From an uncultured bacterium (GTDB lineage: Bacteria > Hydrogenedentota > CAZGCA01 > CBFDCQ01): a DNA stretch of 64,000 bases. Shown in pieces: positions 1,593 through 52,221 of this stretch (the first letter of the stretch is position 1; the number at the start of each line of letters is the position of its first letter). The notes beneath the pieces were generated by a model. The model was not told where the DNA came from and made no database searches. It was given only the letters and a program-made list of their open reading frames with translations. Position numbers and translations under genes: made by a program. The stretch is from the NCBI GenBank assembly GCA_965603355.1, contig CBFDCQ010000008.1, forward strand, positions 5,441 through 69,440, given 5' to 3'.

Positions 1593-1728
1593 GGTCGCTT
1601 TCCCTTACGTTTGGTCAATCACTGAACATCTAACACCAGATCTTCCATATTGCGGGGTAACGGGACAGGATAAGGCCTTTGCACGAGTCAGGAGGATCGT
1701 GACCGCGAAAACTCGGCCAAGACATCCG

Positions 1729-9262: not shown

Positions 9263-9273
9263 GCGTGGTCCAC

Positions 9274-9702: not shown

Positions 9703-9748
9703 CGCGTCCCGTTCCTCCTCATTAAGTGAAGTTGTCCAAGAATTCCCG

Positions 9749-10765
9749 TCATACGCCCAGATCGTCGAGCATTGTGCCGTAGAAGTTAACCCAAAAGCCG
9801 ATGACAAAGAAGGCGACACGAATAGCAACGGCTAAAATTACGAGCACATAGAGTACTACAACAAGATTGTTCGCTGCCTGCATAGCTTCCGCTTCATGAA
9901 TGTCCGCCACTTTCTGCAGATGTTGGTCAAGTTTGCCGGACTCCTCTCCGGTATGGATCATCTCGCGCGCCATGTCGCTAAGGTAGCGACATGGCGACAA
10001 GGCGATGCTAAGAGACTCACCAGCTTGTATATCGGGTATGCACCTGACCAGGCTGCGTTCTATATACGGATTGTTGGCTGTGGCGGCGGCTTTGTGTACG
10101 GCCTCCGTTATTGGGACGCCACTCTTAATGAGCAGGCCCAAGGACCTGGCGAACCGCGAGATCGCCAGTTTACGCGTTATTGAGGCCAGCGGCCACATGA
10201 ACGTGGTGATAAGGCCGGATACCCATCCCAGGAGTCCCAACCTTGCCAGCACGACCGCAACCAGCAGCACTACTCCTATAAACAGCAGAAGCTGTGCAAT
10301 ATTCTGGAGGAAAAGCTGCATGAGCAGGTTGAAGTCCAGACCGTCCGTGGAAGCCTTTCCGAGAGCACCCATGAAGCATATTGTGATGAAGAGGAACAGC
10401 AGAAGGCAGATTGGATAGATCAATTTGCCGATGATTTTTCTGACGAGCGCGGCCATTCGCTCGTAATAGTCCGCGAGGTTCTCGAATATCTCGGCCAGTC
10501 TTCCTCCGATCTCCCCCGCGCCGACGAGCTCGATAAAGAATTTCGGGAGGTACCGTGACTGTTCGCGTGAAGCTTGCTCGAGCGTCGAACCTCCCTTGAT
10601 GGAGTCGGACATTTGTGACACGACGTTCCTGAGCCGCCAGTTGTGGGTGTTGTTCGTGATGATATCAAGACTTCTCAAGATGGGTATGCCTGCACCGTGA
10701 GAGGTGGCAAGCTGCCGACAGAACACCATCATAGTGCGGAGGTTAAGTTTGGACGAGAAGATCAT
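9749..10765 (-). CDS. type II secretion system F / type IV pilus PilC-family inner-membrane protein
   Basis: Two GspF-like domains (..IELVGAGEIGGRLAEIFENLADYYE.. and ..MIHTGEESGKLDQHLQKVADIHE..) with TM segments. No GspE ATPase neighbour in the window. Confidence 0.65.
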   Translation of the reverse strand: MIFSSKLNLRTMMVFCRQLATSHGAGIPILRSLDIITNNTHNWRLRNVVSQMSDSIKGGSTLEQASREQSRYLPKFFIELVGAGEIGGRLAEIFENLADYYERMAALVRKIIGKLIYPICLLLFLFITICFMGALGKASTDGLDFNLLMQLFLQNIAQLLLFIGVVLLVAVVLARLGLLGWVSGLITTFMWPLASITRKLAISRFARSLGLLIKSGVPITEAVHKAAATANNPYIERSLVRCIPDIQAGESLSIALSPCRYLSDMAREMIHTGEESGKLDQHLQKVADIHEAEAMQAANNLVVVLYVLVILAVAIRVAFFVIGFWVNFYGTMLDDLGV

Positions 10766-10786
10766 TTGGATACTATTTCGATTCCG

Positions 10787-11686
10787 CTAATTCTCCGGTT
10801 TCTGGGACTCTTTAACGATCCGGTACGTTGGATAAGCGAAGTTTATGTTCCCGTTCGCCTCAAAATTTTCAAGTATACCGCGCGAGAGATTGTCCTGCAT
10901 AGTCCTTCGCTCTCTGGCGCCGGTCAAGTATCTGAGCGTGAGTTTAACCCCGTTGTCGGCTATTGTGACGTAGACAGCGGGGGTGAGCGTGCTGTACTTG
11001 ATGGCGTACTTCTTCCTGAGCTCCTTGAGTCCCGACTTGGCGTGCAGCTGCGCCTCCTGAGCTCCTTCCACGGCGCGGTCGAGCATAATCTGTCTTGCCT
11101 TGCGCCAATCGCTCTCGAAGGTCACCGTCACGCCCAACTCGTCCCATATGAACGGGAATCCGCTCGTGTAGTTCCATACGGGCTGGCGAAACAGCGTGTT
11201 GTTCGGGCAATGCGCGAGCCGGAACGTGCTCTGTTCGCCGGACACCCACTCGCCGACCTCGAGGAGGGTGGTCTGAAACAACCTGATGTCTATTACGTCC
11301 CCGACGAGATCTCCGATACGTATTCGGTCACCGACACTGAACGGGCGACGGACCAGGATGAAAAGCCACCCCGCCACCGACAGTATCGCGTCGGCAAGGG
11401 CTATGATAAGACCGGCTGCCGTCACACTCACGATGACCGTCAGATCGATATCCGGTAAGGCTTCGATCCAAATCAGGACAACGGCCAGTAGTGCGACGAC
11501 CGTGGCGGCATACGTCGCGGCCTTGCGAGCCCTGTGCCTCCTGTTAACATCCTCGACCTTTCTGCTAATGATGCGAAACGCTATGAGCATGCCCAGGTAG
11601 GTGAGGATAAGCGCTGCCACGGTACACAGCACTTTCGTCAAGACCACGGCATCAATGCGATCTGCCATATCAGCTAGAAAAGGCAT
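10787..11686 (-). CDS. mscS: small-conductance mechanosensitive channel (MscS family)
   Basis: Three N-terminal TM helices, then GDRIRIGDLVGDVIDIRLFQTTLLEVGEW and the beta domain typical of MscS. Confidence 0.8.
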   Translation of the reverse strand: MPFLADMADRIDAVVLTKVLCTVAALILTYLGMLIAFRIISRKVEDVNRRHRARKAATYAATVVALLAVVLIWIEALPDIDLTVIVSVTAAGLIIALADAILSVAGWLFILVRRPFSVGDRIRIGDLVGDVIDIRLFQTTLLEVGEWVSGEQSTFRLAHCPNNTLFRQPVWNYTSGFPFIWDELGVTVTFESDWRKARQIMLDRAVEGAQEAQLHAKSGLKELRKKYAIKYSTLTPAVYVTIADNGVKLTLRYLTGARERRTMQDNLSRGILENFEANGNINFAYPTYRIVKESQKPEN

Positions 11687-37672: not shown

Positions 37673-39472
37673 GTGAACAGTATGATGAACACTCTGAACC
37701 GGATGTTCCAAGAGAGCGTGAGGAAGTACGCTTCCATGCCCGCGCTTTCAAGTAAGGCAGGAGGCGAGTACAAGTCTGTCACCTACAGTGAGATGGGGGC
37801 TAAGGTGCGCACGCTCGCGAGCGGTCTGGTGGATTTGGGCGTGCAGAAAGGTGACCGCATCGCGCTCATCTCGGAGAACCGTCCTGAGTGGGCGGTTGCT
37901 GACATGGCGATCGCGCATGTTGGTGCGATCAACGTTGCGGCTTTCCCAACGCTCCCACCGGGGCAGGTGGGATACATCGTTGGCGACTCGGGCTCAAAGC
38001 TGATACTCGTTTCAGACAAGAAGCAGTTGGCGAAAGCGCTCGAGGTGAAGAAGGTCCAGCCCGATCTGCGCATCATCACCATGGATTGTCCCGCCGACGC
38101 TGTCAACGACGTGATCACCTTGGATGACGTCATGAGGCGCGGCGAAGCTTCACCGCTTAACGACACGGACTACGAGGACCTGTGGCGCAGTGTTCAGCCG
38201 GATGACTGGGCGAGCATTATTTACACGTCCGGCACGACGGGCGACCCCAAGGGGGCGATTCTCTCGCACTACAATTTTGCCTCCAATGTAGAGGCTGCCC
38301 AGGATGCGTTGACCTTTGAGCCTGGAGACGTGCTGTTGTCTTTCGTTCCTCTCAACCACGTGATGGGGCGACTGGTGGACCTGTACTTGGCGCTGGGTTG
38401 CGGCGCAACGATTGCCTACGTTGAGGATCTGCGTCGGCTGCGGCAGAACATGGCGGAAGTAAGGCCGCACTACGTGACGCTCGTGCCTCGCGTCTTTGAG
38501 ATGTTTCAGGAAGGTCTGCTTCGCAACGTCGCCAAAGAGTCTGATTTGAAGCAGAAGTTGTTCAACTGGGCGCTGTCGGTTGGCGAGCGCCGCACCGAGC
38601 GGATACAAGATAGACAGGCGGTGCCGTTTCTGCTTGCGTTCAAATGGCGGTTCGCCGATACACTGGTTTTCAGCAAGATCCGCGGGCGGCTGGGTTTGAA
38701 CCGGCTCAAGTTGTTCCTCACGGGCAGTGCGCCGCTGCCGAAGGCTACGGCGGAGTTTTTCAGCGCGATGGGAGTGACGATTCTGCAAGGATACGGGCTG
38801 ACCGAGACGTCGCCTCTTGTCTCTGTGAGCCGTCCCGCCTGGATCAAGTTCGGCACGGTCGGTCCGCCGGTCATAGATGTCGAGGTGAAAATCGCCGCTG
38901 ACGGCGAGATCCTGGTGCGCGGCCCGAACATCATGCAAGGTTACTACAACATGCCCGAAAAGACCGCGGAGGTCATAGAATCTGATGGTTGGTTTCACAC
39001 GGGCGACATAGGTGAGTTCGATGAAGACGGGTTTCTCAAGATCACCGATCGCAAGAAGGACCTCCTCGTTCTGGCCAACGGCAAGAAGGTTGCGCCTCAG
39101 CCGATTGAGAATCTTCTGAAAGAGAGTCCCTATATCTCCCAGGTCATCCTCTTTGGCGACAAGCAAAGCATTGTAACTGCTCTGGTTGTGCCGTTATTTG
39201 AGCGCGTGAAGGCATGGGTAAAGGAACGCGGCATAAGTGTCAGCTCGATAAAGGACAAAGAGCTTGCGCAGCTCGCTGCGGTGAAGAGCCTGATTCAAGA
39301 GGAGATCGAGCGGCTTTCGGGGCACCTCGCCAACTTCGAGAAGGTCCATCGTTTCTCGCTGATAGACCAGGAGTTCACCGTTGAAGGCGGTGAGATGACC
39401 CCAACGCTCAAAGTCAAGCGGCGTGTGGTACTGGAGAAGTACAGGGACGTGATCAAGTCAATGTATCGTTGA
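37673..39472 (+). CDS. fadD: long-chain-fatty-acid--CoA ligase (AMP-dependent synthetase)
   Basis: AMP-binding motif IIYTSGTTGDPKGAILSH; GYGLTETS; C-terminal domain. 599 aa. Confidence 0.8.
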   Translation: MNSMMNTLNRMFQESVRKYASMPALSSKAGGEYKSVTYSEMGAKVRTLASGLVDLGVQKGDRIALISENRPEWAVADMAIAHVGAINVAAFPTLPPGQVGYIVGDSGSKLILVSDKKQLAKALEVKKVQPDLRIITMDCPADAVNDVITLDDVMRRGEASPLNDTDYEDLWRSVQPDDWASIIYTSGTTGDPKGAILSHYNFASNVEAAQDALTFEPGDVLLSFVPLNHVMGRLVDLYLALGCGATIAYVEDLRRLRQNMAEVRPHYVTLVPRVFEMFQEGLLRNVAKESDLKQKLFNWALSVGERRTERIQDRQAVPFLLAFKWRFADTLVFSKIRGRLGLNRLKLFLTGSAPLPKATAEFFSAMGVTILQGYGLTETSPLVSVSRPAWIKFGTVGPPVIDVEVKIAADGEILVRGPNIMQGYYNMPEKTAEVIESDGWFHTGDIGEFDEDGFLKITDRKKDLLVLANGKKVAPQPIENLLKESPYISQVILFGDKQSIVTALVVPLFERVKAWVKERGISVSSIKDKELAQLAAVKSLIQEEIERLSGHLANFEKVHRFSLIDQEFTVEGGEMTPTLKVKRRVVLEKYRDVIKSMYR

Positions 39473-40277: not shown

Positions 40278-41738
40278 ATGAGAAGACGCCGGTTATGGTT
40301 GGCAGTGGCTCTATTGGCGGTTGGTTCGGCCATTGCAGGGTCGACGTTCCCGTCACGGGCGCAGGAGAACGCCGACGGCCTCGTGTATGTGATACCGATC
40401 AAGGGCATGATCGGTCCCGGACTGGCCAGCATGGTCGGGAGGAAGATTGACGAGGCGGAAGAAAAGGGTGCGCAAGCCATAATCTTCGAGATTGACACGC
40501 CCGGTGGGCGTGTGGATTCGGCGGCACAGGTTCGTGACGCGATATTCGAGACTCCTTTGCAGACCATCGGCTATATAAAGTACAGGGCGACTTCGGCCGG
40601 TGCGCTCGTCGCGTTGGCCTGCCAGTCCATCGTCGTGGCGCCGGGCAGCTCTATAGGCGCGGCAGCTCCAATAATGATCGCGCCCGGGGGATCGGGTCCC
40701 GTGCCGGGCACCGAGAAGGAGGTCTCTTACGTTCGGACGGAATTCGTCGCGACAGCCGAACGCAACAACCATAACACACTTCTCGCGAAGGCTATGGTGG
40801 ACAAGGACGTCGAGGTATACGCGCGATTCACGGATTCGGGGGTGGAGATATTCGAGGGCCCTCTGGACGGCGAAAAGCCGCCGGACGTTGAGCTTGTTAT
40901 CGCCAAGGAGAAGCTTCTCAGTCTGTCGGGGGAGGAGACTCTCAAGCTGGGGCTTGCGGAACACGAGGCCAGCAGCGTTGGCCAAGTGCTCAGACTTTAT
41001 GACATGCGCGGAGCGCGTCTCGTGCGGGCTGAGCTGAGTTGGTCCGAGAGGTTGGCGCGGCATCTCACGCACCCCGCTGTCAGCGGGCTGCTGCTGACGT
41101 TTGGTTTCTTGGGCATCATATACGAACTGAAGATCCCGGGGTGGGGAATCAGCGGGACCATAGGGCTGACCTGCCTCGCTCTGTTCTTTGGCGCCCACCT
41201 TCTTGTTGGTCTTGCGGAATGGATGGAATTGCTGCTTTTCGGGGCGGGGATAGTGCTGATTATTGCGGAGATATTCTTCATTCCGGGGTTTGGCATAGCT
41301 GGAATATCGGGTACCGCATGTCTGATGGCCGCGATCTATCTTGCGCTCGTGAAATCGCCCATACCGAGGAGCCCGGATGAGATCGCACAGTTCCAGCGCG
41401 CAATGTACACACTGGTCTGGTTCGTGTTAGCGTCGCCGATCATCCTGGTATTGACGTGGAAACTGCTGCCGCGTACCCCGTTCTACGGGCGGATTGTACA
41501 GGTGGCGGAGGAACGTGCCGATCTGGGTTTCACGGCTGCTTCTACGGAGTCGTATATTGGCCAAGTTGGACGTACCGTCACGATTCTGAGACCTGCAGGT
41601 CGCGCGCGGTTCGAGGGCCGGCTTGTGGATGTCGTTGCTGAAGGTGAGTTTATCCCTCCCGGCACTCAGGTGAGGGTGGTTGACGTTAAGGGTAGCCGTG
41701 TGGTTGTCATCCCGGATGAGGAGGTTAAGGAAAGCTAG
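40278..41738 (+). CDS. NfeD-family membrane-bound ClpP-class serine protease (long form)
   Basis: Signal/TM, ClpP-like domain (..IFEIDTPGGRVDSA..KYRATSAGALVALAC..), multiple TM helices, C-terminal OB-fold. 486 aa. Confidence 0.75.
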   Translation: MRRRRLWLAVALLAVGSAIAGSTFPSRAQENADGLVYVIPIKGMIGPGLASMVGRKIDEAEEKGAQAIIFEIDTPGGRVDSAAQVRDAIFETPLQTIGYIKYRATSAGALVALACQSIVVAPGSSIGAAAPIMIAPGGSGPVPGTEKEVSYVRTEFVATAERNNHNTLLAKAMVDKDVEVYARFTDSGVEIFEGPLDGEKPPDVELVIAKEKLLSLSGEETLKLGLAEHEASSVGQVLRLYDMRGARLVRAELSWSERLARHLTHPAVSGLLLTFGFLGIIYELKIPGWGISGTIGLTCLALFFGAHLLVGLAEWMELLLFGAGIVLIIAEIFFIPGFGIAGISGTACLMAAIYLALVKSPIPRSPDEIAQFQRAMYTLVWFVLASPIILVLTWKLLPRTPFYGRIVQVAEERADLGFTAASTESYIGQVGRTVTILRPAGRARFEGRLVDVVAEGEFIPPGTQVRVVDVKGSRVVVIPDEEVKES

Positions 41739-41740
41739 AG

Positions 41741-42067
41741 ATGCTGAGCAAAAAGAAGAAGACGCTTCACAAGATGCTGAAAATGCTTTTGCGCGACTTG
41801 CGCGATCTGGAACATCGAGGTGCTGGTTATTACAGCGCCGTACCGTATGCGGAGCGGTACAATAAGCTGCTCGGTCAGATCAGATCGTCGTACCCGGACG
41901 ATGCGGACCTGCTTGGCACGTTCGAGGATATGGTGCCGGAATCCTCTACCGATTCGGCGGTCAAGGCCAAGGCGGTCGAGAGGCTTATTGTGGAGATAGG
42001 TCAGCTCATGGCCTTCATTGAAGCCTCTTTCGAGGCGGAAGAGGAAAAAGGAGACGAGGACTCGTGA
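41741..42067 (+). CDS. hypothetical cytoplasmic protein, 108 aa
   Basis: ORF between the two NfeD genes with translational coupling (stop/start overlap). No domain recognised. Confidence 0.35.
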   Translation: MLSKKKKTLHKMLKMLLRDLRDLEHRGAGYYSAVPYAERYNKLLGQIRSSYPDDADLLGTFEDMVPESSTDSAVKAKAVERLIVEIGQLMAFIEASFEAEEEKGDEDS

Positions 42068-42564
42068 TAGTCTTACTGCTGTTTCTGGCTGGAATGGCGC
42101 TGCTTTTCTGCGAGCTGTTTATTCCGGGCGGCGTTCTCGGTACGGTGGGTATTGTCTGCATCGGTGGAAGCATCTTCTTCGCATTCAGGGACTACCCCGA
42201 CGCTGCGCTGGCGGTGCTCGCAGGTGAGGTTCTAGTTCTTGCTGTAGGAGTTGTGGTATGGCTGAGAGTATTTCCCCATACACCTATCGCTCGACGTCTC
42301 ACCCTGGCGCGGGAGTTTGACGCCGAAGAAGGTTTCACGAGCGCATCCTCGGAGCTGGAAGAGTATGTCGGCAAGCAAGGCGTGGCCGTGACGATCTTGA
42401 GACCGGCCGGAATCGCTCTGATCGAGGGGAAACGAGTGAACGTTGTGACAGACGGGGAGTTCATTGAGAAGGACGAGCGGGTAAAGGTGTCGGAAGTGGA
42501 AGGAGGACGTATAGTCGTTCTGCCGGTGACCGATAGCGATGCGGGGGCGGACGCGGATACGTAG
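42064..42564 (+). CDS. NfeD short-form protein (two TM helices plus C-terminal OB-fold)
   Basis: N-terminal hydrophobic hairpin. The C-terminal ..VGKQGVAVTILRPAGIALIEGKRVNVVTDGEFIEKDERVKV.. is the NfeD OB-fold. Confidence 0.65.
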   Translation: MIVLLLFLAGMALLFCELFIPGGVLGTVGIVCIGGSIFFAFRDYPDAALAVLAGEVLVLAVGVVVWLRVFPHTPIARRLTLAREFDAEEGFTSASSELEEYVGKQGVAVTILRPAGIALIEGKRVNVVTDGEFIEKDERVKVSEVEGGRIVVLPVTDSDAGADADT

Positions 42565-42629
42565 TAGGGTCTGGCAGCCCTTTAGAAAGGACAGGCGAAG
42601 GCGAGGCAGACTTGGACGCGACGCACTGT

Positions 42630-42745
42630 TAGGGTGCAGGAATGACGCATTGCTAGGGTGCGGGAATGACGCGTTGGTAGGGTGCGTGCGTGACGGGCAG
42701 TTGGAGTGTGGGAGTGGCGCATTTGGGAAAGAATGACGCCTTGGA
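42630..42745. repeat. tandem direct repeat of about 24 bp (tagggtgcgggaatgacgcgttgg), about 3 copies plus degenerate copies, each carrying GGAATGACGC
   Basis: Units 42630-42653, 42654-42677, 42678-42704 read directly, with a further gaatgacgccttgg at about 42731. The motif matches the solo hairpin element at 11930-11956. Confidence 0.8.
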
Positions 42746-42824
42746 GGCTCGGGCTCACAAGGAGCGGCACATCATAGAAACATTAACGGAACTGTAGGTT
42801 AGATTCAATGAAAGGAGACTGACA

Positions 42825-43859
42825 ATGCCACACCCAGCTCTATTGGTAGGATTGTTCGTCGGCGGGATAGTGCTGCTCATCGCCTTCGCGGTGCTCGCGA
42901 GGTTCTTCGGCCTCTGGCTGAGGGCGGCGCTATCCGGAGCCAAGGTTACGTTCACGAACCTTATCGGCATGACCTTGCGTAACGTGTCGCCGAAGATAAT
43001 TGTCGACAGCCGTATCATGGCGGTGAAGGCGGGACTCCCGCTCAGCGTGAACGATCTCGAGACACATTATCTCGCGCGCGGAAACGTCTTGAACGTGGTG
43101 AGAGCTTTAATTGCGGCAAGTAAGGCGGGCATCGAGCTGGAGTTCCCGCAGGCTGCCGCGATCGATCTCGCCGGCCGGGATGTGCTCGACGCCGTGAAAA
43201 CATCTGTTAATCCCCGCGTCATTGACGCGCCCGACCCAGGGAGGGGTAAAGATACTGTTAGCGCCGTGGCGATGGACGGTATCCAGCTTAAGGCCAAGGC
43301 GAGGGTGACGGTCAGGGCCAACCTCGAACGGTTGGTCGGCGGTGCGACCGAGGAGACTATCATTGCGAGGGTCGGCGAAGGAATCGTGACCACGATAGGT
43401 TCCTCCGAGACTTACAAGAGCGTGCTTGAGAATCCCGACTCCATCTCGAAGAGGGTTCTGGATAGAGGTCTCGATTCCGGGACGGCGTTCGAGATTCTGT
43501 CCATTGATATTGCGGACGTTGACGTCGGCGAAAACATCGGCGCGCAACTTCAGGCGAGACAGGCGGAGAGCGACAAGCTTGTCGCTCAGGCGCGGGCGGA
43601 GGCGCGTCGCGCGACCGCCGTGGCGCGTGAGCAGGAGATGAAAGCGCTGGTTCAGGAAATGCGCGCGCGTGTGGTCGAGGCGGAAGCCGAGGTGCCTAAG
43701 GCCATGGCAGAGGCGTTCCGCGCGGGTAACCTGGGTATACTGGACTACTACAAGTTCAAGAATATCCAGGCGGACACGTCCATGCGCGATTCCATAGCTG
43801 GTGTGGGCGAAGGCGAAGAGAAACGTGAGGAAGAGAAACGTGAGGAAGACAAACGTTAG
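42825..43859 (+). CDS. floA: flotillin-like protein FloA (SPFH domain; YqfA/UPF0365 family)
   Basis: Near-diagnostic blocks: [93 protein letters not shown]. The C-terminus has a tandem 15-bp repeat ([14 protein letters not shown]). Confidence 0.85.
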
Positions 43860-43871
43860 AGGTGATCAGAA

Positions 43872-44441
43872 ATGAATCCCTTTCCGCTTATCATTCTGTT
43901 CATTGTCGGTGCCAACATCATCAAGGGCATTCGAGAACAGGCTAAGAAGCAGCAGGAGATGGGTGGACAGCAGCCAGGGGAGCAATCCCCAAAGCTCTTC
44001 GAGACCGAGGATGGAACACCGCCTGGCGCGGTCCAGCACCCTTCGCAGCAGCAACGGCCGGCGGCTGACACAGGGAAGATACCGCCGGTTTTTGGAACGG
44101 GACCCAGGGGCACCGTTTTCGACCAGTGGTTTGGAGAGAGCCAGCAGGAAAAGGGAGTTGCCTGGGAAGCTCAGCGGGACGAGATCGGCGAGTTTCTTGG
44201 GATTAAACCCAAACCGGTGCCTGTTGTTGCGCCGCCCATGCCTATAGTCGAAGAGGTGACGGCCGAGCCGATACTGGAGGAAGTGCGGCGGCCGACGATT
44301 CCCGTTGCGAGAAGGAAGCGCGGACCGATCCAAAAGAAAGCGGCGCGGATGCTGCCTCGTGGCGTGTTCGGCGACATGGGCGATGTGAGGCGCGGGATAA
44401 TTATGTCGGAGATACTCGGGCCACCCAAGGGGCTGCAGTAA
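43872..44441 (+). CDS. hypothetical protein with N-terminal TM, Pro/Gln-rich; last gene of the NfeD-FloA operon
   Basis: 189 aa, follows floA by 12 bp. Followed by a terminator. Confidence 0.4.
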   Translation: MNPFPLIILFIVGANIIKGIREQAKKQQEMGGQQPGEQSPKLFETEDGTPPGAVQHPSQQQRPAADTGKIPPVFGTGPRGTVFDQWFGESQQEKGVAWEAQRDEIGEFLGIKPKPVPVVAPPMPIVEEVTAEPILEEVRRPTIPVARRKRGPIQKKAARMLPRGVFGDMGDVRRGIIMSEILGPPKGLQ

Positions 44442-44466: not shown

Positions 44467-44497
44467 GGGGGCACACCACAGCGGTGTGCCCCCTTTT
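44467..44497 (+). terminator. rho-independent terminator: gggggcacacc-acagc-ggtgtgccccc followed by TTTT
   Basis: Perfect 11-bp GC-rich stem, 5-nt loop and a T-tract, 25 bp after the operon's last stop. Confidence 0.75.
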
Positions 44498-44642
44498 GCT
44501 ATCTTACCCAATGCTGCCACTCTGAGTCCGCGGCGGCGGGCGAAGAATCTCAAATCCAGTAAATGGCGGGAAAAAGTACTTGACAAGGATTGATAATAGG
44601 TGTATAATACACATGTGAACTAAGGGAGAAAGGAGAACGAAG

Positions 44643-45119
44643 GTGGGACTGAAAGAGGAACTTGGATTGAAAATACCCTTTACCGTACCTGCGCACGAGG
44701 CGCTGCTGAGTATCTTCTTCACGGGATCTCTGATCAAGAAGAAGGCCCGAGAGTTCTTCAGCGCGTATGGCGTCACGGATGTGCAGTTCAACCTCATGAT
44801 GCTGCTGATGTACCATTCAGGGGACGATGGGGGATTGACCCAGGCTGATTTGAGCCGCATGATGCTCGTGAATAGGGCCAACATAACGTCGCTCGTAGAC
44901 AGGATGGAGAAGGCGAGTCTGGTTGTCCGGACCGCGGTGCCAGGCGACAGGAGGTACAACTCCGTTCGGCTGACGGCGCACGGCAAGAAGGTCCTGCTTG
45001 ACGTCGAGGAGGAGTATGCTCACGAGGTCGCGAAGATCATGGGAGCGCTCGACGACTCCGAAGTGCGCGACCTTATAGGGGACCTGGAACGTATTCGGAC
45101 AAGTCTTAAGGGGCGTTGA
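44643..45119 (+). CDS. MarR-family transcriptional regulator
   Basis: Winged-helix region ..LTQADLSRMMLVNRANITSLVDRMEKASLVVR..DRRYNSVRLTAHG.. 158 aa. Confidence 0.8.
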   Translation: MGLKEELGLKIPFTVPAHEALLSIFFTGSLIKKKAREFFSAYGVTDVQFNLMMLLMYHSGDDGGLTQADLSRMMLVNRANITSLVDRMEKASLVVRTAVPGDRRYNSVRLTAHGKKVLLDVEEEYAHEVAKIMGALDDSEVRDLIGDLERIRTSLKGR

Positions 45120-45270
45120 CGGAGGATTGACATTCAGACGTGGTCAAGCGAGGGGGTTTTTGGATAAGGATAGTTTATATATGTATCGTATATATGCGGA
45201 TTTATTCGGCTGCCATATATACTCACGATAACTCTGGTTTGGGTCCAGGGGCGGCATTCTAAAACAGGAG

Positions 45271-45726
45271 GTGGTTGAAATGAAGGGGTTTCCGAAACTA
45301 GGACGCCTGACGAGGGCTCGGAAGGTATCGCTCGTTCTGGTTGCGGTGAGCTGTGTTTCACTGATAGCGGCTTTTGTTGTTGGAGTCAGTGATAACTGGC
45401 CGGGGATAACGCTATGCTACATCGCGGCTACGACTTTCATTCTTGCTCTTGTGCATAGCGGGCGTCGGATAAGGAACTTCTTGATCCTCCTTGGCATGGG
45501 GCTGGTCGGGTTCCCTCTGTTTGCTGTGCTGCACAATGTCTTTTATGCGCTGGGGGAAATAGCGAAAGATATCGCCATAGTGCACCATTCCATGGGGCTC
45601 TTGCATGCGGCATTCTTTATCATTGCGATTATGTTCTGCCCGGCGGCTGTCGTGATTGGCGCTGTTGGCAGCGTGGTAGTTGCAGCGATGAATAGGCGAA
45701 GACAGATGTCCAATGAAGCGGCATAG
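45271..45726 (+). CDS. small 4-TM membrane protein, hypothetical
   Basis: Hydrophobic 151-aa ORF downstream of the marR gene. Confidence 0.4.
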   Translation: MVEMKGFPKLGRLTRARKVSLVLVAVSCVSLIAAFVVGVSDNWPGITLCYIAATTFILALVHSGRRIRNFLILLGMGLVGFPLFAVLHNVFYALGEIAKDIAIVHHSMGLLHAAFFIIAIMFCPAAVVIGAVGSVVVAAMNRRRQMSNEAA

Positions 45727-45816: not shown

Positions 45817-47460
45817 ATGAGAACCATGTTTAGACGAGCGATTACATGTTGCCTGGCGGTGTTGACGCTACTTAGCCTGGTCGGGTGCAGCACGGTGTAT
45901 ATGAAAGCGACACCGTTCTATACCGGCGAGTACGAGAAGACCGACGGGCCGGCCGAGAAGAGGGTAAACCTCTGGCCGCTGGCGTACTACCGGAAACCGG
46001 CGCTGTCCTTGCTGTGGCCGCTTGGGGAGGTCACGGACGACCATGTCGCCGCACGTCCACTCGTTGCGGTCTACAAGCTCGACAAGGAAGAGCGCCAGTG
46101 GCGTATTCTGTGGCCCTTGGCTCAGTTTGACTTCGAGACGGACAGCCATCATATCTTGCCGGTTTTTTGGGGCGAGGACTACTTCTTCATACCCCCGTTG
46201 GTTTTGTGGTCCGATGAGTACAAGGCGGTGTTCCCGTTGTGGCTGCATTCCAAGGATTCGGGTGGCCACGATACTTGGGCGCTATGGCCGTTCTTCCGAC
46301 TCGAACGGGAGGAGGACGAGCGGGGCTTCCACGTCTGGCCGCTGGTTGGCTCTTACGAGCAAGAGGATAGCAGCTATACCTTCGCGATGTGGCCGCTGTG
46401 CCAGCGATGGCGTGACGGCGACGACTCTCTTCTGCTGACACCGCTGTGGTCCAGCAGAACCGAAGGCGATTCGCGGTGGAACTGCTTGTTCCCGCTCTAT
46501 TACACCAGCACCAATCCGTCAAAGGACGAGGAGCGACTGATAACTCCGGTCATTGGCCGCGCACGTTCGGGCGACAAAACGCGGTGGATCCTTGTTCCGG
46601 CCGCTTCGTCCGTGTCATGGGGTGAGGATGAGAAGGATATTTGGGCGCTGGCACCTCTGGCACATTTCCGGTGGGGCGGCGACGACGTTCAGAGCCATGT
46701 CGCGCCGCTATATCTGTATGACCGAGACGAGAACCTGTTCGTCTCGCCCGTGTTCTCAAGGAGAAAGGGCGATGACGATGGCTTCGTCAATGTGCTCACG
46801 CTTCTTGGCCAATACACGTATCACAGCGATGGACAGAAGACGTTGAGGTTGCTTCCGCCACTGACGGCAGTCTCGCGGGGCGGGAAGTACAGGCGTCCGG
46901 GCGCATGGTTGTTCTCCTACTTCGCACCGGAAGCACGTGCTGAGCAAGAGAAGCCGTACTACCTCTGGATTGCGCCATCGATTTACTGGGAGCGGGATTT
47001 CGGCGAGAGGGAGTGGTCGGAGGATCCAGATGGTGCGGGATGGACGGGCGAGTGGCATCGGAAAGGACTCTTCCCCCTCTGGCACTACCAGAGCCACGAG
47101 GATCCTGAGAGGGAGCGCCGTTATCGCGACTTTTCGCTGCTGGGCTTCTTGTACGATTATCGTCTCCGTCAGGGCCGGCCCGCAAGAGATGATTCCGAGA
47201 TAACCGAGGACTACGTGCGGAGGCGTATTCTCTGGCGATTGGCTCATTATGAGCGCATTGACGGAGATAAGACGCTTGATATCTTTCCTGCCATAACCTG
47301 GGACAGCAAGGCGGACGGTTATAGACAGTTCTCGTTCTTGTGGCGGCTGTTCCGAGTTGAACGCACTGAAGATGGCGGGCAGAATCTGGACTTCCTATTC
47401 GTCCCGCTGATGCGCAAGAGCGGCACGTCCGAAGGCGGAACCGGCCAGGGAGAGCTTTGA
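45817..47460 (+). CDS. lipoprotein built from about 25 short (about 17 aa) Trp/Pro/Leu-rich repeats; family not recognised
   Basis: Lipobox LSLVGC|S. Recurrent units such as LWPLAYYRKP, LWPLGEVTDD, LWPLAQFDFETD, VFWGEDYFF, FPLWLHSKDSG, LWPFFRLERE, VWPLVGSYEQ, MWPLCQRWRDG, TPLWSSRTEGD, FPLYYTSTNP, APLAHFRWGGDD, APLYLYDRDEN, FPLWHYQSHED. 547 aa. Confidence 0.6.
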   Translation: MRTMFRRAITCCLAVLTLLSLVGCSTVYMKATPFYTGEYEKTDGPAEKRVNLWPLAYYRKPALSLLWPLGEVTDDHVAARPLVAVYKLDKEERQWRILWPLAQFDFETDSHHILPVFWGEDYFFIPPLVLWSDEYKAVFPLWLHSKDSGGHDTWALWPFFRLEREEDERGFHVWPLVGSYEQEDSSYTFAMWPLCQRWRDGDDSLLLTPLWSSRTEGDSRWNCLFPLYYTSTNPSKDEERLITPVIGRARSGDKTRWILVPAASSVSWGEDEKDIWALAPLAHFRWGGDDVQSHVAPLYLYDRDENLFVSPVFSRRKGDDDGFVNVLTLLGQYTYHSDGQKTLRLLPPLTAVSRGGKYRRPGAWLFSYFAPEARAEQEKPYYLWIAPSIYWERDFGEREWSEDPDGAGWTGEWHRKGLFPLWHYQSHEDPERERRYRDFSLLGFLYDYRLRQGRPARDDSEITEDYVRRRILWRLAHYERIDGDKTLDIFPAITWDSKADGYRQFSFLWRLFRVERTEDGGQNLDFLFVPLMRKSGTSEGGTGQGEL

Positions 47461-47472
47461 GAGGCGGTCTCT

Positions 47473-48519
47473 TTGAGGAAAGACCAAAGCGGAATGGAGA
47501 GGCATCCGATGGCTGAACAGGAATCTCTGCGGAGCAAGATCGAGAAGTGGGTGGCTGAAGGGTTGATCTCTGCGGAGCAGGGTGAGGCCTTGAAACGGCA
47601 CGAAGAAGAGTGTGCAACGCCTGTACGGCGCGTGAAGGCCGATGAGGTCCTCGTTTATCTCGGCAGTCTGGTTGTCTTTCTGGCGATGGCGTTCGGAGTG
47701 GGCGTGAACTGGACGGCGCTGGGGAGCGCCGGCAGGATACTGTCTGTAGCAGTTCCCACAGTGGCCATGCTGGCATTGGGCTGGCGGCTGCGCGGGTCAG
47801 AGAACGCACGGCACAGACGGGGCGCGCAAGCGCTATGGCTGAGCGGCTGCCTACTGAGTGCGCTCTGTTTTGGAGTAACGTTCCATGAGCTGCATATCAT
47901 CGACGACGAGGCGTTCCTAATCCTGATGAGCTGCCTGTTGGCGACGTGTGTCGCAGGCGTTCCCTTCGTGCTGCTCAGGAGCATCGCTCAGAGCATCGCG
48001 TTGCATCTTTGCGGTACCGCAACGCTGATTTCGCTCCTCATCTGGCTGGAAGATTCTGTGATCCCACCCACGTTCAACCAGTTCTATGAGTATCTGTTGC
48101 TCACGGCAGTCTGTCTGGTAGTTGGCGGTCTGTGGCTGGCGCTCTCGGAGTGGCTGCGAAGGAGGGAGAGGATAAGGCTTGCGGACGTATCCCGTATCTT
48201 CGGGACCTTCACGATCTTGATCTTCACTCTCGTCTTGGCCACGGAGGGGCAAGAATGCCCTGCACCTTGGCAGAAGCCGGCGATGGAAGCCATACCATTC
48301 TTGGCAAGCATCGGTTTCATCGCTGCAAGTGTGAGACGGCAGTCGCGAGTCTTCCTGTATGGTGGAGCGGCATTCCTTCTGTTCTGGATCATCTACATGA
48401 ACTTCGAGCATTTCAGGGAGAAGATCGGGATGCCTATCGCACTGCTCATCATCGGCGCGGTGCTCATCGGGCTGGGGCTCGGAGCGGGCCGGTTAAGCAA
48501 ACGGATACGCGGAAGTTAG
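47473..48519 (+). CDS. DUF2157-like polytopic membrane protein
   Basis: The N-terminal amphipathic segment LRSKIEKWVAEGLISAEQGEALKRH followed by 8 or more TM helices matches the DUF2157 layout. Confidence 0.55.
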   Translation: MRKDQSGMERHPMAEQESLRSKIEKWVAEGLISAEQGEALKRHEEECATPVRRVKADEVLVYLGSLVVFLAMAFGVGVNWTALGSAGRILSVAVPTVAMLALGWRLRGSENARHRRGAQALWLSGCLLSALCFGVTFHELHIIDDEAFLILMSCLLATCVAGVPFVLLRSIAQSIALHLCGTATLISLLIWLEDSVIPPTFNQFYEYLLLTAVCLVVGGLWLALSEWLRRRERIRLADVSRIFGTFTILIFTLVLATEGQECPAPWQKPAMEAIPFLASIGFIAASVRRQSRVFLYGGAAFLLFWIIYMNFEHFREKIGMPIALLIIGAVLIGLGLGAGRLSKRIRGS

Positions 48520-48586: not shown

Positions 48587-49312
48587 TTGGTGGGGCGATG
48601 CCAGCCTGGATCCCGCCAGCCAGTGAAAGGAGAAGGAACGATGAGGATCAAGACTGAGTTCATGAGATGGATCTGCCTGGGTGTACTGCTTGCGGTGCCG
48701 CTTTCATGTGTGACGCCGGATGTCCGTGAGACACATGCGCCGGAAGTCAAGCAGGCGGGCCCGTTCGCCGAAGTGCCACCAGAGAAGGAGTGCGAAGAGA
48801 TCGACGCCCGGGCGCAAGAATTCTTGAAGGAAGCCAAAACGAGCAAGCTGACGATCTACGCCGTATACGTGATGAACGAGCCTGCCCGGCATGATCCCGA
48901 TGCGGCGCAACTACTGGCCAGGAAACTTGAGGATGCGGGATTTGAACGGGTAAGTGTGTTCGAAGACCCTGCCGATCTGCCCTTCGAGCCGGAGCCAAAC
49001 GAGCTGAACATCTTTTGGAAGCGCGCTCGAGCGTTTGCTTCGCAGGTCCAGGCAAGACCTCTGGACACCGATTACGTGCTGGTGGTGGACGTGTTCGCCG
49101 ATTTCGAGAAGGGCGCCATGGGACCCGTGCATGCCGCTACGACCAACGCCGAAGGCCAGTTCGCTTACCTCGCGCTGCGGAACAGCCACCATCCTTTATT
49201 CCAAGCGATTGCGCCCAAGTCGATGGACGACATGTGTCGGCTAGTGATTGAGGATATGAAGCGAAAAATGGAGGGCGAAGCGTCGCAGTCCGCACAGCGG
49301 GTATGGCAATAA
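48587..49312 (+). CDS. hypothetical lipoprotein
   Basis: Likely start at MRIKTEFMRWICLGVLLAVPLSC|V (lipobox). No known domain. Confidence 0.4.
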   Translation: MVGRCQPGSRQPVKGEGTMRIKTEFMRWICLGVLLAVPLSCVTPDVRETHAPEVKQAGPFAEVPPEKECEEIDARAQEFLKEAKTSKLTIYAVYVMNEPARHDPDAAQLLARKLEDAGFERVSVFEDPADLPFEPEPNELNIFWKRARAFASQVQARPLDTDYVLVVDVFADFEKGAMGPVHAATTNAEGQFAYLALRNSHHPLFQAIAPKSMDDMCRLVIEDMKRKMEGEASQSAQRVWQ

Positions 49313-49365: not shown

Positions 49366-50442
49366 TCAATCGCGGTCGCGTCGAATTTCGGCCATGAAAG
49401 TCGCGGCGTCATCCTCTTTGCCGATTTCCGCCGCGATCTTCGTCAAGTTGAGCGCAGTCTCTTCACAGTAGGGGTTGATTCTAAGCGCGCGTTCGAAGCT
49501 CTCGTACGCTTTCTCCTTCTGTCCGAGCTTCCAGAGCGCGACGCCGGTGCCGGCGTGAGCTGCTTCGTTTAGCGGGTTCTCTTTGAGCGCCTCGACGAAC
49601 TTGCGTAGCGCCTCCATATGGTTGTTCTGTTCCAACAATCCCTGTCCCTGTTGGACGAGCTCTGACGCAGCGGCACGACGTTTATGTTCCTCTTCGTCCG
49701 GCACCCTCCACTTCTCTCTAAACAAGTTCTCGTTGTCTCGCAGCAGGTTCGTCCAGCGCTCTCCCTCAACGCCGAGCGCAAGAAAGGTGCGTTCCCCGAA
49801 GTGGAAGATGAAACAGTCAGTTGCAATCAGCAGCTTGAACCCGTTCTGCTGCGCGCGCACGCAGTAGTCGTCATCCTCGAAATTGCCTATCCCAAAGCGC
49901 TCGTCAAGGTATCCTATCTGCCGAATGACGTCCCTCTTGATAAGCATGCAGAATCCGACCAAGCCGATCGCAGCGTCCCACTGGCCCGCGTTACGTCTCG
50001 CGACGTCTCGGGCGTATTGTTCGAGCTCCTCGAGATGGCGGAGCTCTCTTGTTTCGATAAGTTGCGCACCCTTTGCGTGATTTGTCACGGGGCCGACGAT
50101 GCCAACCCTCTCATCGCTTTCGGCGGCCTGAACGAGTGTGGTCAGCCATCCGTCAGTTACTATCGTATCGTTGTTGAGGAGAAGGACGTAGTCGCCGTCG
50201 GCGGCCTTGATGCCCGCGTTGGTGCCGCGCGGGAACCCGAGGTTTTCTTCTTCGCGAATAACGACTGCGCCTTCCAGGGAACGGAAATACTGTTCCGTGC
50301 CGTCGGTCGATCCGTTATCAACAAGTACCAGCTTGTACGGGTAGCGCGTGCATCTCGCCAGGCTTTCGACGCACATTCGCGTGTATTCGAGCTGGTTATG
50401 GGCGACGATCACTACAGAAGCGTGCGCCGCTGCGTTGGACAT
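49366..50442 (-). CDS. family 2 glycosyltransferase with C-terminal TPR repeats
   Basis: GT2 motifs VVIVAHNQLEYT, LVLVDNGSTDGT, DxD region LLNNDT. C-terminal TPR-like helical repeats (..ALWKLGQKEKAYESFERALRINPY..). Confidence 0.75.
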   Translation of the reverse strand: MSNAAAHASVVIVAHNQLEYTRMCVESLARCTRYPYKLVLVDNGSTDGTEQYFRSLEGAVVIREEENLGFPRGTNAGIKAADGDYVLLLNNDTIVTDGWLTTLVQAAESDERVGIVGPVTNHAKGAQLIETRELRHLEELEQYARDVARRNAGQWDAAIGLVGFCMLIKRDVIRQIGYLDERFGIGNFEDDDYCVRAQQNGFKLLIATDCFIFHFGERTFLALGVEGERWTNLLRDNENLFREKWRVPDEEEHKRRAAASELVQQGQGLLEQNNHMEALRKFVEALKENPLNEAAHAGTGVALWKLGQKEKAYESFERALRINPYCEETALNLTKIAAEIGKEDDAATFMAEIRRDRD

Positions 50443-50451
50443 CGTTTTGCT

Positions 50452-52221
50452 CTACTTTCTTGTCACTGTGATAGTGACATCTTTGCCAGGCTCGATCGTC
50501 TGCAGTTGCATTGTAGCCACGGACTCGGCTCGGTTCAAGAAATAGGTTGCACCGCTGACATCGATCTCGTAATCCTCGAAACCGGGATACAGTTTCAACG
50601 TAAGATGTGTGATTCCGTCCGGAGCGCTGATCGTCCATCCGAAACCGGATTCCGATCTCGTGAACCTGCCTACCCGGGCAGCTTTCCTCTCAATCCACCA
50701 CTTGGCCAACTTCGCGCCCGTGTCGTTGAACACCCATTTGCCGTCAAATCGTTTCAGGACGTCGCGGTAAGCCCCCAGACGGTCAACGCATCCGTCAGCG
50801 TCGCGCACATAAGTGCGCCAAAGCAAACTGAACAGGGCGTGCCGGCGGGATGTCTTTCTAACAATATTGGCTATGCGTGCGAGCGCGACTCGTACGTCGG
50901 GATCTTCTTCGAACAGCTTCTCGTCGGCGACGACGGCCGGGAGCTGCAGCGCCGATGAGGCTCGCCGCTCGCTGCGAATGTACGGGAAGTGAGGAAACGC
51001 CAGGCCTGCCCGGTAACCTACGTTATTAAGTCCGCCCGTGCTGCCGTATGCGAACGCGGCTTGCTCGTGTGAAAGATGGCTTCCGGGGATGTATGGGCCG
51101 ACGGTGCGCTGATGCAACCCGCTGACCTCGCTTTGAAGCGTTTCCTCGAGCAGCTCTTTTTCAGACCGCACCTTCGCACAGGTGAGCGATGCCTCTTCAC
51201 TGGCGCTCAACCCGATCTCGAACCCGCTGCGTCTGAGCTCTCCCAACGCGGCGGACATGCTCTCGTTGCTCACGCCGCGCAGGTCTGAGCCCGCGCCGCC
51301 GGTCGCGGGGAAATAGAACGAGGACGAGAAGCTGTGGTCGGTCTCCAGCCGCATGAGTTCCGAGAAGCCACGGAGCGGTTCTTTACGCATTTTGTTGAAA
51401 CGCAATGCACTTGATATATGCGCGAGCGCCTTTCCCGGTCTCAGCCGCAACATCTCCATTGCGGCGCCGGCAACCTCTTCGCGGAACGATCGTCGCGGGA
51501 CGAACTCAACGTCGTGCGAGAGGAATAGTGCCGACTCGTTGGACCGTGGCCAGTACCATTTTTGCAGCAACGCGGTCTTGCGTTCTCGAGCCACAATGAT
51601 CAGCAGATTCAGCACGATTTCCATGTAGTTGTTCACTATCGGTTCGTCCAGGACGTCCGCGCGACGCAGCGGGCGACCGTTGGCAGGCCGGTCTTCTCCC
51701 GCGTCATAGGTTTCTACGCGTCGTTCCGCCTCGCCGGACAGCAGGTAGAAAGCCGAGGCGACCAGGTCGAACAGGATATCAATCCGAAAGGTTTGCGGGT
51801 GGAACGATACGAGCGGTTTCTCGTCGGATGCGTCGATAACCAGTGCGCGGCCATCCGGCCGGGGTGAGACGCATCCGGCAACCAGGATCGGTCCTGTGGG
51901 CATGCCTCGAACGCCGGAGACGTTGGCGGGGCTGATGTGCGAGTCTGCGCCGGACCAGACCGTACCGTAATCCTCGCATTGCACTCTCACCAGGAAACCG
52001 TCACCGCGCCGGCGGGGATCGTCATTGCGCCCGTAGTAGAAGACGACGTCGCACGCCGGGCGCTCGATCCTGCGTGACGGTGTGTCGGCGGGATAAATCG
52101 TGTACGATACGCCAAGGGTGTCGAGGAGAGTATTGAACACGTATTCGGCCTCGCGGTCGAATTGAGGCGAACAATCCAGAACGACTCCTATTTCCATCGG
52201 CACCACTCCCGGTGTTGGCAT
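50452..52221 (-). CDS. hypothetical protein, 589 aa, co-transcribed with the GT2-TPR gene (possible polysaccharide-modification role)
   Basis: Long ORF whose stop lies 10 bp before the GT2 start. No confident domain assignment from sequence inspection. Confidence 0.5.
   Translation of the reverse strand: MPTPGVVPMEIGVVLDCSPQFDREAEYVFNTLLDTLGVSYTIYPADTPSRRIERPACDVVFYYGRNDDPRRRGDGFLVRVQCEDYGTVWSGADSHISPANVSGVRGMPTGPILVAGCVSPRPDGRALVIDASDEKPLVSFHPQTFRIDILFDLVASAFYLLSGEAERRVETYDAGEDRPANGRPLRRADVLDEPIVNNYMEIVLNLLIIVARERKTALLQKWYWPRSNESALFLSHDVEFVPRRSFREEVAGAAMEMLRLRPGKALAHISSALRFNKMRKEPLRGFSELMRLETDHSFSSSFYFPATGGAGSDLRGVSNESMSAALGELRRSGFEIGLSASEEASLTCAKVRSEKELLEETLQSEVSGLHQRTVGPYIPGSHLSHEQAAFAYGSTGGLNNVGYRAGLAFPHFPYIRSERRASSALQLPAVVADEKLFEEDPDVRVALARIANIVRKTSRRHALFSLLWRTYVRDADGCVDRLGAYRDVLKRFDGKWVFNDTGAKLAKWWIERKAARVGRFTRSESGFGWTISAPDGITHLTLKLYPGFEDYEIDVSGATYFLNRAESVATMQLQTIEPGKDVTITVTRK

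Follow-up and report, generated by a model that had tools for sequence, protein, structure and literature searches.

In Pseudomonas aeruginosa, the most important protection against the phospholipase toxin Tle3 is provided by Arc3A, a protein of the DUF2339 family, which prevents the build-up of lyso-phosphatidylethanolamine (lyso-PE) and monolyso-cardiolipin by a mechanism that is unknown (PMC8926400). Arc3A co-purifies with Arc3B, the product of the gene next to its own, which is a predicted lipoprotein carrying a transmembrane helix at its C-terminus, and the re-acylation of lysophospholipids by LplT/Aas constitutes a separate, parallel route (PMC8926400). Another membrane protein domain, DUF2157, has been merged with the LiaI-LiaF-TM domain of the Lia/Psp envelope-stress systems (PMC11237479). 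The current study concerns a predicted lipoprotein of 547 residues that is encoded directly upstream of a DUF2157 gene, at positions 45817..47460 on the + strand of a 64,000-nucleotide stretch of DNA from an uncultured bacterium of the Hydrogenedentota (contig CBFDCQ010000008.1). The whole of that stretch is referred to below as the window. A preliminary description, made from the sequence alone, had presented the protein as a succession of short Trp/Pro/Leu repeats of an unrecognised family.

The repeat lipoprotein and its relatives resemble the Arc3 and LplT/Aas systems in that relatives share a co-directional gene cluster with DUF2339, DUF3999 and an LplT/Aas fusion, and in that the window protein, like Arc3B, is predicted to be an N-terminally lipidated envelope protein. 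However, as far as tested, it is homologous to neither of the Arc3 proteins. Arc3B has a C-terminal helix and an adjoining DUF2339 gene, whereas a C-terminal hydrophobic helix was found in none of 255 family members and the window has no DUF2339 gene. Arc3B is presumably a DUF3999 protein, in keeping with the adjacency seen in these loci; none of the papers listed by a literature search mentions DUF3999. Because it has no such helix and a DUF3999 gene already stands beside DUF2339 in the clusters, the repeat protein is an extra component and not the equivalent of Arc3B. The locus also recalls the pairs formed by DUF2157 and GDYXXLXY proteins, partners that are themselves uncharacterised, since DUF2157 directly follows the repeat gene in the window, 12 nucleotides after its stop, and at 9 other loci.

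With respect to architecture, the closest described arrangements are the MORN repeats, the TCP domain (G-box) of CPAP/SAS-4 and the central sheet of Borrelia OspA, which is also a lipoprotein. All are short antiparallel hairpin arrays with solvent-exposed faces, as is the fold predicted here. There is, however, no sequence or profile relationship between any of them and the repeat lipoprotein, the MORN period is 23 residues compared with about 17, none has a Pro-centred aromatic turn at every second turn with acidic turns between, and the predicted sheet, with 53 strands, is several times longer.

The reading that we favor, at a probability of roughly 45%, is that the protein forms a membrane-surface β-ribbon that serves, without enzymatic activity, as a scaffold or sensor for the homeostasis of the envelope and of membrane lipids, together with the DUF2157 protein and as part of a MarR-headed operon.

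Results

The repeat is a property of the protein

The repeat lipoprotein contains 28 Trp, 34 Pro and 61 Leu residues. The motif x-P-φ, where φ is a hydrophobic residue, occurred 23 times, compared with a mean of 7.8 in composition-preserving shuffles, and 16 consecutive spacings between these motifs were 12-19 residues long. Spacings within 12-20 residues made up 73% of the total, compared with 12% on average and 67% at most in the shuffles. A hidden Markov model (HMM) trained on the protein's own repeats was judged to be circular and hold-out tests were used instead. An HMM built from the units of the C-half (residues 171-425) scored 24.8 bits on the N-terminal part, with a shuffle maximum of 6.3, and the reverse test, with five training units, was weak to marginal (7.2 bits, shuffle maximum 7.4). 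Tandem Repeats Finder found no nucleotide tandem repeat in the gene, so that the repeat exists at the level of the protein.

The same periodicity was seen across the family. The spacing histogram of the 255 family proteins had a sharp mode at 17 residues and, less marked, a harmonic at 33-36, and the 1,300 units of exactly 17 residues gave the consensus φ-L-[W/T/F]-P-L-[Y/F]-[W/H]-x-x-[R/K]-[D/S/G]-[G/P]-[D/E]-x-x-x-[W]. The residues that are invariant in the family are mostly turn prolines (P158, P297, P420, P491 and P530). The preliminary description, which had suggested internal repeat detection as a check, was right about both the period of about 17 residues and the absence of a tandem repeat in the DNA, and the motifs quoted in it (LWPLAYYRKP, LWPLAQFDFETD, FPLWLHSKDSG, VWPLVGSYEQED, MWPLCQRWRDGDD and APLAHFRWGGDD) are all present.

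Predicted structure of the repeat array

AlphaFold2 (AF2) was run with 33 sequences and with 130 sequences in the input. The first run gave a predicted local distance difference test score (pLDDT) of 78.9 and a predicted template-modelling score (pTM) of 0.42, and the second gave values of 85.1 and 0.60, respectively, with the same layout of 53 strands. In both models, a signal-peptide helix (residues 2-22) is followed by poorly ordered residues, 25-48, and then by the 53 β-strands, which form about 26 hairpins with units of 12-19 residues. The main repeat array, residues 49-355 (45961..46881, + strand), consists of 38 strands of 3-6 residues, mostly with a pLDDT above 90, and its φ(W/F)P(L/V) turns alternate with polar, mostly acidic or Gly turns of 2-7 residues, most of them 2-4 residues long. 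The middle part, residues 356-462 (46882..47202, + strand), is irregular: its strands have 7-10 residues, its acidic loops are long and residues 366-380 were modelled with low confidence. It differs in length across the family. The strands reach up to 10 residues in the region 389-471 and are short again in the conserved C-terminal hairpin block (47203..47424, + strand), DYVRxRILWRLxHYER..GD.SLDxFPxITWD..DG...SFLWRLFRxER..DGG..LDxLFxPLxR, where LWRL takes the place of LWPL in two turns.

Mapping of the sequence on the AF2 strands placed the φ(W/F)P(L/V) motif in the turn that links successive hairpins and not in the core of a strand. A unit in the model comprises two strands of 4-6 residues joined by a tight acidic/Gly turn (for example ED, GD, DG, GEDE, GGDDV or KGDDD), with a φ-(W/F)-P-(L) turn between one unit and the next that is followed directly by (Y/F)(W/H) and, a few residues on, by R/K. 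The alternation of hydrophobic and acidic turns has no exceptions in residues 50-361 (38 turns) and 386-534 (13 turns), and the net charge summed over all turns of a type is about -30 for the acidic and about +3 for the hydrophobic turns. Since successive turns of an antiparallel meander fall on opposite edges, the two kinds of turn would be segregated, and the ribbon would carry its greasy aromatic turns, with a basic residue behind them, along one edge and its acidic turns along the other. The amphipathicity of the strand faces, which would be the signature of a lipid groove or a barrel, was not significant (z=0.63 relative to shuffles).

These models refine the earlier picture of the protein. 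The repeat itself stood, with a predicted count of about 26 hairpins in place of the 25 or so units proposed. The claim that everything after the lipobox is repetitive holds for almost the whole chain, the exceptions being the non-repeat residues 25-48 and the irregular residues 356-462. Short W/P/L repeats with acidic turns were correctly described, but the (L/F)WPL element that had been taken for the core of the unit is the turn between hairpins.

A Foldseek search of the PDB gave template-modelling (TM) scores of 0.15 or less. The lowest expectation values (E) were obtained for WD40, PROPPIN and YWTD propellers (5e-5 to 8e-4), and the matches with a probability of 1.00 were to the TCP domain. 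The structural neighbours of the model are antiparallel meanders. The AF2 model describes one long antiparallel β-meander ribbon, which as a whole resembles no solved fold and in local detail looks like a sheet of hairpins in a single layer. A closed fold, whether propeller or barrel, is not supported, because a membrane barrel would need longer and less polar strands, the chain ends in a polar C-terminus and the number of units varies freely among homologs. With a pTM that is moderate, a closed fold keeps a small share of the probability.

The comparison with established repeat classes was negative. The protein had neither a match to the MORN profile (PF02493) nor the MORN period of about 23 residues with its YxGxW...GxG signature, and no match to the CW_binding profile of the choline-binding, cell-wall-binding and CROP β-hairpin solenoids. 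For YD/Rhs repeats there was no Pfam or NCBIfam match, teneurin appearing only at a Foldseek E of ~1e-2 and a TM-score of 0.13. Neither the blade profile nor the closed toroid of the β-propellers (WD40, Kelch, PQQ, YWTD) was found, and the bilayer-spanning amphipathic strands and C-terminal aromatic β-signal of an outer-membrane β-barrel were likewise missing. There was no HemolysinCabind or other Pfam match that would indicate an RTX/calcium-binding β-roll with its GGxGxDxUx nonapeptides, and the structural neighbours are antiparallel and not of the parallel roll type. The earlier statement that the periodicity is not that of YD, MORN, choline-binding, Kelch or PQQ repeats thus agrees with the lack of a match to any Pfam repeat family.

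Gene model and predicted lipid anchor

The open reading frame (ORF) for 547 residues described earlier is present with its lipobox. Its first ATG, at 45817, directly abuts a GGGAGGG sequence, whereas a second ATG at 45826 lies about 9 nucleotides after it, a better spacing, and the N-termini of the homologs read MFRR or MFTR. On the basis of these two observations, the true start is probably the ATG at 45826, which would shorten the protein to 544 residues. At the N-terminus, MRTMFRRAITCCLAVLTLLSLVGC, a basic n-region and a hydrophobic core lead up to a canonical L-V-G-C lipobox whose cysteine is Cys24 (signal peptide and lipobox, 45817..45888, + strand), and the start M(RTM)FRRAITCCLAVLTLLSLVGC fits the pattern of a signal peptide with a lipobox of the form [LVI][ASTVI][GAS]C. 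Cys24 is at least 90% conserved among the homologs, and a lipobox-like motif was found in at least 185 of the 255 relatives, many of the remaining ones visibly having a lipobox or being truncated. The repeat lipoprotein is, by prediction, a secreted envelope protein with an N-terminal lipid anchor.

The putatively lipidated Cys is followed by a conserved segment that is not part of the repeat, residues 25-48 (45889..45960, + strand), with the pattern C-x-MK(G/A)TPFYTGEY...R-V-N; the shorter form C-x(2-8)-MKGTPFY is present in 129 of the 255 relatives. The AF2 confidence for these residues was low in the first model and moderate in the second, and despite this the MK(G/A)TPFYTGEY...RVN segment is among the best-conserved parts of the family. 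Motifs that bind a partner or act as a cap typically show such a combination.

At the other end, the C-terminus is polar (…RKSGTSEGGTGQGEL) and there are no aromatic residues in the last 15 positions. Antisense and out-of-frame ORFs of up to 337 residues overlap the gene (for example 46796-47809, - strand) but they have the appearance of artefacts of GC-rich DNA because conservation tracks the + strand frame. One spurious cluster among the ORFs called at the homolog loci had the same origin.

A large family related to LA_1737 of Leptospira

A word-indexed search recovered 111 homologs (E<=1e-3) with up to 85% identity, all of them hypothetical proteins and none with a Pfam domain. Those with a named source were mostly from metagenome-assembled genomes of Kiritimatiellia and Verrucomicrobiota. 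The family profile, searched exhaustively with HMMER, matched 2,691 representatives clustered at 50% identity at E<=1e-3, of which 801 reached E<=1e-30. The members range from about 400 to 1,800 residues in length with up to 11 matched stretches per protein, and the genome loci belong to Kiritimatiellia, Victivallales/Lentisphaerae, Verrucomicrobiota, one Sumerlaeia and a few doubtfully labelled bins. Judged from these sequences, the family is large and uncharacterised and comes mostly from the Planctomycetes-Verrucomicrobia-Chlamydiae (PVC) superphylum.

The window protein had no Pfam match at E<=1, no Pfam model was found for any of the ten members tested (the window protein included), and the family profile had no match among PDB sequences at E<=10. 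In this sense, the family is unrecognised, as originally claimed, but it turned out to be homologous to a curated NCBIfam family, NF047486 (LA_1737_Cterm), an uncharacterised family of Leptospira. The window protein matched NF047486 with 25.9 bits (E 8.1e-6), below the curated cut-off of 60; 14 of 33 aligned relatives also matched the model (best E 1.5e-7), and two long family members exceeded the cut-off (P0209, 64 bits; P0249, 71.4 bits). A search that started from one of the long members above the cut-off reached an "LA_1737 family protein" of Leptospira koniambonensis (P0285, 2,124 residues) that is full of FPLYY/APLYY hairpin units, and hhalign aligned the family with P0285 over 229 columns with a probability of 96.3% and an E of 1.8e-9. 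The NF047486 matches and this alignment indicate that the repeat is shared with the spirochaete family. A literature search for LA_1737 returned unrelated papers only.

The two families have in common an array of φ-φ-P-L-(Y/F)-(Y/F) hairpins, represented by FPLYY, APLYY and FPLFY in Leptospira and by LFPLYY, VAPLYLY and LWPLAYY in the window protein. In contrast, the LA_1737 proteins are about 1,700-2,100 residues long and rich in Phe and Tyr, whereas the window protein has 547 residues, is rich in Trp and has its own N-terminal (MKGTPFYTGEY) and C-terminal (LWRLxHYER...) blocks.

Gene neighbourhood in the relatives

When all of the window neighbours were compared with 51 homolog loci by tblastn, a single weak DUF2157 match was obtained, which indicates that the exact neighbourhood of the window is not conserved at the sequence level. 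The shared link to DUF2157 and DUF2339 became visible only in profile scans of the loci. An LplT/Aas fusion of about 1,140 residues, which joins an MFS transporter to an acyltransferase and an AMP-binding enzyme, lies immediately upstream of the repeat gene at 17 of the 51 loci, which span Kiritimatiellia, Victivallales/Lentisphaerae and Verrucomicrobiota. The repeat protein at these loci is of a long form (830-1,170 residues), and a divergent sigma-54 activator gene is found upstream of the fusion wherever the flank reaches that far. Among the genes downstream, DUF2157 was found at 9 of the 51 loci, GDYXXLXY, following DUF2157, at 7, an alpha/beta hydrolase at 12 and DUF2339 at 11. The order of the long-form cluster is LplT/Aas fusion, repeat protein, DUF2157, GDYXXLXY, hydrolase, DUF2339 (the Arc3A family) and DUF3999.

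The position of DUF2339 varies from one to six genes downstream of the repeat gene. It is the next gene in L020, the second in L007 and L052 and the fourth in the full clusters, and it lies further off in L008. The lipid theme goes further in such loci: the insert in the L008 cluster (8474-11472) encodes PlsY, a fusion of a FeeM-like N-acyl-amino-acid synthase with an aminotransferase, and an Rce1-like CAAX protease. Three of the checked loci extend past DUF2339 (L007, L020 and L052), and in two of them DUF3999 is adjacent to it (L007 12263-13525; L020 11182-12558). The DUF2157 protein of the window is weakly similar to that of the long-form clusters, with 29% identity over 114 residues and a pairwise E of 2e-6.

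The closest genomic relative of the repeat lipoprotein, P0004 (57% identity), has an orthologous MarR gene upstream, whose product is 54% identical to that of the window. Downstream of P0004 there is an unrelated gene for a 389-residue protein and then one for a DUF2339 protein of 993 residues; the 389-residue protein was considered as a DUF2157 protein and rejected. Upstream of the MarR-repeat pair at the same locus, L052, an envelope-related set (1102-4827) comprises an ArsR-type helix-turn-helix protein, the CreD inner-membrane protein and a 520-residue protein with no Pfam match. Elsewhere, two short-form homologs lie beside GH20/GH84 (NAGidase) hexosaminidase genes on the opposite strand (L054 1101-5745; L056 3693-6110), which hints that some members of the family may be tied to the use of glycans instead of lipid repair, and one distant member lies beside a GDSL lipase gene.

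The order of genes in the window, MarR, small hydrophobic protein, repeat lipoprotein, DUF2157 and lipoprotein, is that given in the preliminary description, which had also asked whether it was conserved. The answer is mixed. The MarR pair recurs in the closest relative and DUF2157 at 9 of the 51 loci, while the small hydrophobic protein and the downstream lipoprotein recur at none of them by tblastn.

An apparent operon in the window

On the + strand, a strong terminator-like hairpin of 11 pairs, 9 of them GC, followed by a T-run (44467..44493), closes the upstream unit. A sigma-70 promoter that agrees with the consensus at 12 of 12 positions (TTGACA-17-TATAAT; 44580..44608, + strand) begins 87 nucleotides after the hairpin and lies 35 nucleotides upstream of the MarR gene; it is likely to be the start of the operon. 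Such a perfect sigma-70 consensus is unusual for a PVC-type genome. The MarR-family regulator has 158 residues (44643..45119, + strand). The spacer that follows it contains AT-rich inverted repeats (45176..45222), in which TATATATG occurs twice in direct and once in inverted orientation, giving GTATATATG and CATATATAC 17 nucleotides apart (GTATATATG-N17-CATATATAC at 45188-45222); these repeats are a candidate MarR operator or internal promoter region.

The next gene (45271..45726, + strand) encodes a small hydrophobic protein with no family match, labelled "4-TM" in the preliminary description, with a probable start at the ATG at 45280, after AGGAGG. The 4-TM protein showed no similarity to the DUF2157 protein of the window. 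The latter, a polytopic membrane protein of 348 residues (47473..48519, + strand; Pfam E 1.2e-17), follows the repeat lipoprotein and is itself followed by a second putative lipoprotein (48587..49312, + strand; signal peptide ...AVPLSC) that has no family match and an uncertain start, at 48587, 48641 or 48662. The arrangement is consistent with a MarR-headed envelope operon that runs from the MarR gene through the 4-TM protein, the repeat lipoprotein and DUF2157 to the second lipoprotein.

Downstream, two converging genes on the - strand (49366-52221) encode a GT2-TPR glycosyltransferase of 358 residues and a 589-residue protein with a weak, sub-threshold match to DUF7033. Upstream, a complete membrane-microdomain module (40278-43859) encodes an NfeD1b-type membrane protease (486 residues), a 108-residue protein, a short NfeD (166 residues) and the flotillin-like FloA (Pfam E 1.5e-153), and is followed by a gene for a 189-residue protein with no family match (43872-44441). 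An AMP-binding gene of the acyl-CoA-synthetase type (37673-39472, 599 residues) lies about 6 kb upstream of the repeat lipoprotein. It was considered as an equivalent of the LplT/Aas fusion and rejected, as only the adenylation domain is alike and the MFS and acyltransferase parts are missing. The PADLOC defence models gave no matches to the repeat gene and its neighbours.

Discussion

Mechanism suggested for the repeat lipoprotein

Under the reading favored here, the repeat lipoprotein would be an elongated, single-layer β-ribbon that is tethered by its lipid anchor and stands edge-on to a membrane surface or to a polytopic partner that it meets on the periplasmic side of the membrane. The aromatic edge and the basic residue that flanks it would touch the membrane interface or the partner, with the acidic edge directed toward the periplasm. 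The protein has no catalytic motifs, and its role would be that of a scaffold or sensor. The partner may be the DUF2157 membrane protein encoded 12 nucleotides downstream, with co-expression of the two from the MarR-headed operon. In the long-form relatives, the repeat protein is part of a sigma-54-regulator-linked island that unites both of the known routes of lysophospholipid control, LplT/Aas and the Arc3A-type DUF2339 with DUF3999, together with a hydrolase and membrane proteins of the envelope-stress type.

Several observations weigh against this reading. The functional part of it draws on the gene neighbourhood of a sister subfamily, since the lipid-repair context belongs to the long-form proteins of 830-1,170 residues, and the window has no DUF2339, GDYXXLXY, hydrolase or LplT/Aas fusion gene. 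Around three short-form relatives, which stand nearer to the window protein, and around three distant members, the neighbouring genes are of unrelated kinds. With regard to structure, the polarity of the edges was deduced from the order of strands and turns and from the antiparallel-meander hits, the parity of the turns slips once, at the low-confidence loop 366-380, and a pTM of 0.60 gives the overall shape moderate confidence.

Alternative explanations

The aromatic hairpins might instead have a glycan, part of the cell wall or a small head-group as their ligand, in place of a membrane, so that the protein would be a surface or periplasmic ligand-binding repeat comparable to the choline-binding, clostridial CROP and glucan-binding repeats. 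We consider this unlikely. In its favor, the repeats are short β-hairpins of about 17-20 residues that are rich in aromatics and conserve W/Y/F, two of the three short-form relatives examined adjoin the hexosaminidase genes mentioned above, and the GT2-TPR glycosyltransferase lies just downstream in the window, again on the opposite strand. However, no Pfam match to CW_binding, choline-binding or carbohydrate-binding repeats was obtained at E<=1, the glycosidase neighbours are divergent and not conserved elsewhere, and the neighbours that do recur in the same direction are membrane and lipid genes. A closed fold, in which the open meander of AF2 is globally wrong and the chain forms tandem β-propellers, of about 13 blades built from two hairpins each, or else one β-barrel of very large size, is quite improbable. 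It would account for the propellers at the head of the Foldseek list, for the secondary spacing peak at 33-36 residues, which fits super-units of two hairpins, and for a pTM of 0.42-0.60. Strands of 4-6 residues with non-amphipathic faces cannot, however, span a bilayer, the protein is a predicted lipoprotein whose polar C-terminus has no terminal aromatic, and the number of units varies freely among homologs of about 440 to 1,800 residues, a variation that open architectures such as a solenoid or ribbon easily accommodate and closed ones hardly can.

The length of the sheet raises the idea of a conduit or bridge across the periplasm, like those of the Lpt or AsmA/TamB type, that brings lysophospholipids or other lipids to LplT/Aas. 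At 4.8 Å per strand, 53 strands would extend over about 25 nm, which is about the width of the periplasm, the repeat gene is directly downstream of the LplT/Aas fusion at 17 of the 51 loci, and there were weak Foldseek matches to the lipid-binding β-belt of ApoB100 (E ~2e-3, probability 0.15). Yet the non-amphipathic strand faces offer no obvious hydrophobic groove, homologs of 1,000-1,800 residues would be far longer than the periplasm is wide, and there is no second membrane anchor, the C-terminal hydrophobic helix being absent from all 255 members; a conduit is quite improbable as well. Finally, the region is about 58% GC with long spurious ORFs on both strands, which could raise the suspicion of a chance ORF or a translated DNA repeat. 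This explanation is refuted by conservation: homologs number 111 at E<=1e-3 with up to 85% identity, the lipobox, the prolines and the C-terminal block are conserved, and 2,691 cluster representatives match the family profile. The gene contains no tandem repeat at the DNA level, and AF2 modelled the protein with confidence.

Implications

A bolder form of the membrane-surface ribbon proposal, which is unlikely, is that the family represents a new structural class of "edge-amphipathic" β-ribbon lipoproteins, in which a continuous greasy, Pro-centred Trp/Phe-Leu edge is inserted into one leaflet of the membrane or docked on large polytopic partners (DUF2157, DUF2339). Such proteins would supply a missing part of the Arc3 and LplT/Aas response to lysophospholipid damage in PVC bacteria and, by homology, in Leptospira. 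If this is true, the ribbon could sense or seal packing defects or corral damaged lipid for repair. The predicted placement of the conserved hydrophobic residues in every second turn, and not on a face of the sheet, is unusual among repeat proteins.

The family is large, with no fewer than 2,691 clusters at 50% identity, and is covered by no Pfam model, solved structure or publication; its only curated relative is the uncharacterised Leptospira family. Should the inference from gene context prove wrong, what is left would still be a well-defined new repeat family that is worth a Pfam entry and a structure, although not a functional discovery. DUF2157, GDYXXLXY and DUF2339 proteins are likewise widespread and unexplained. 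The mechanism by which Arc3 counters the build-up of lysophospholipids is still unknown (PMC8926400), and the repeat protein is a concrete new candidate component of that response.

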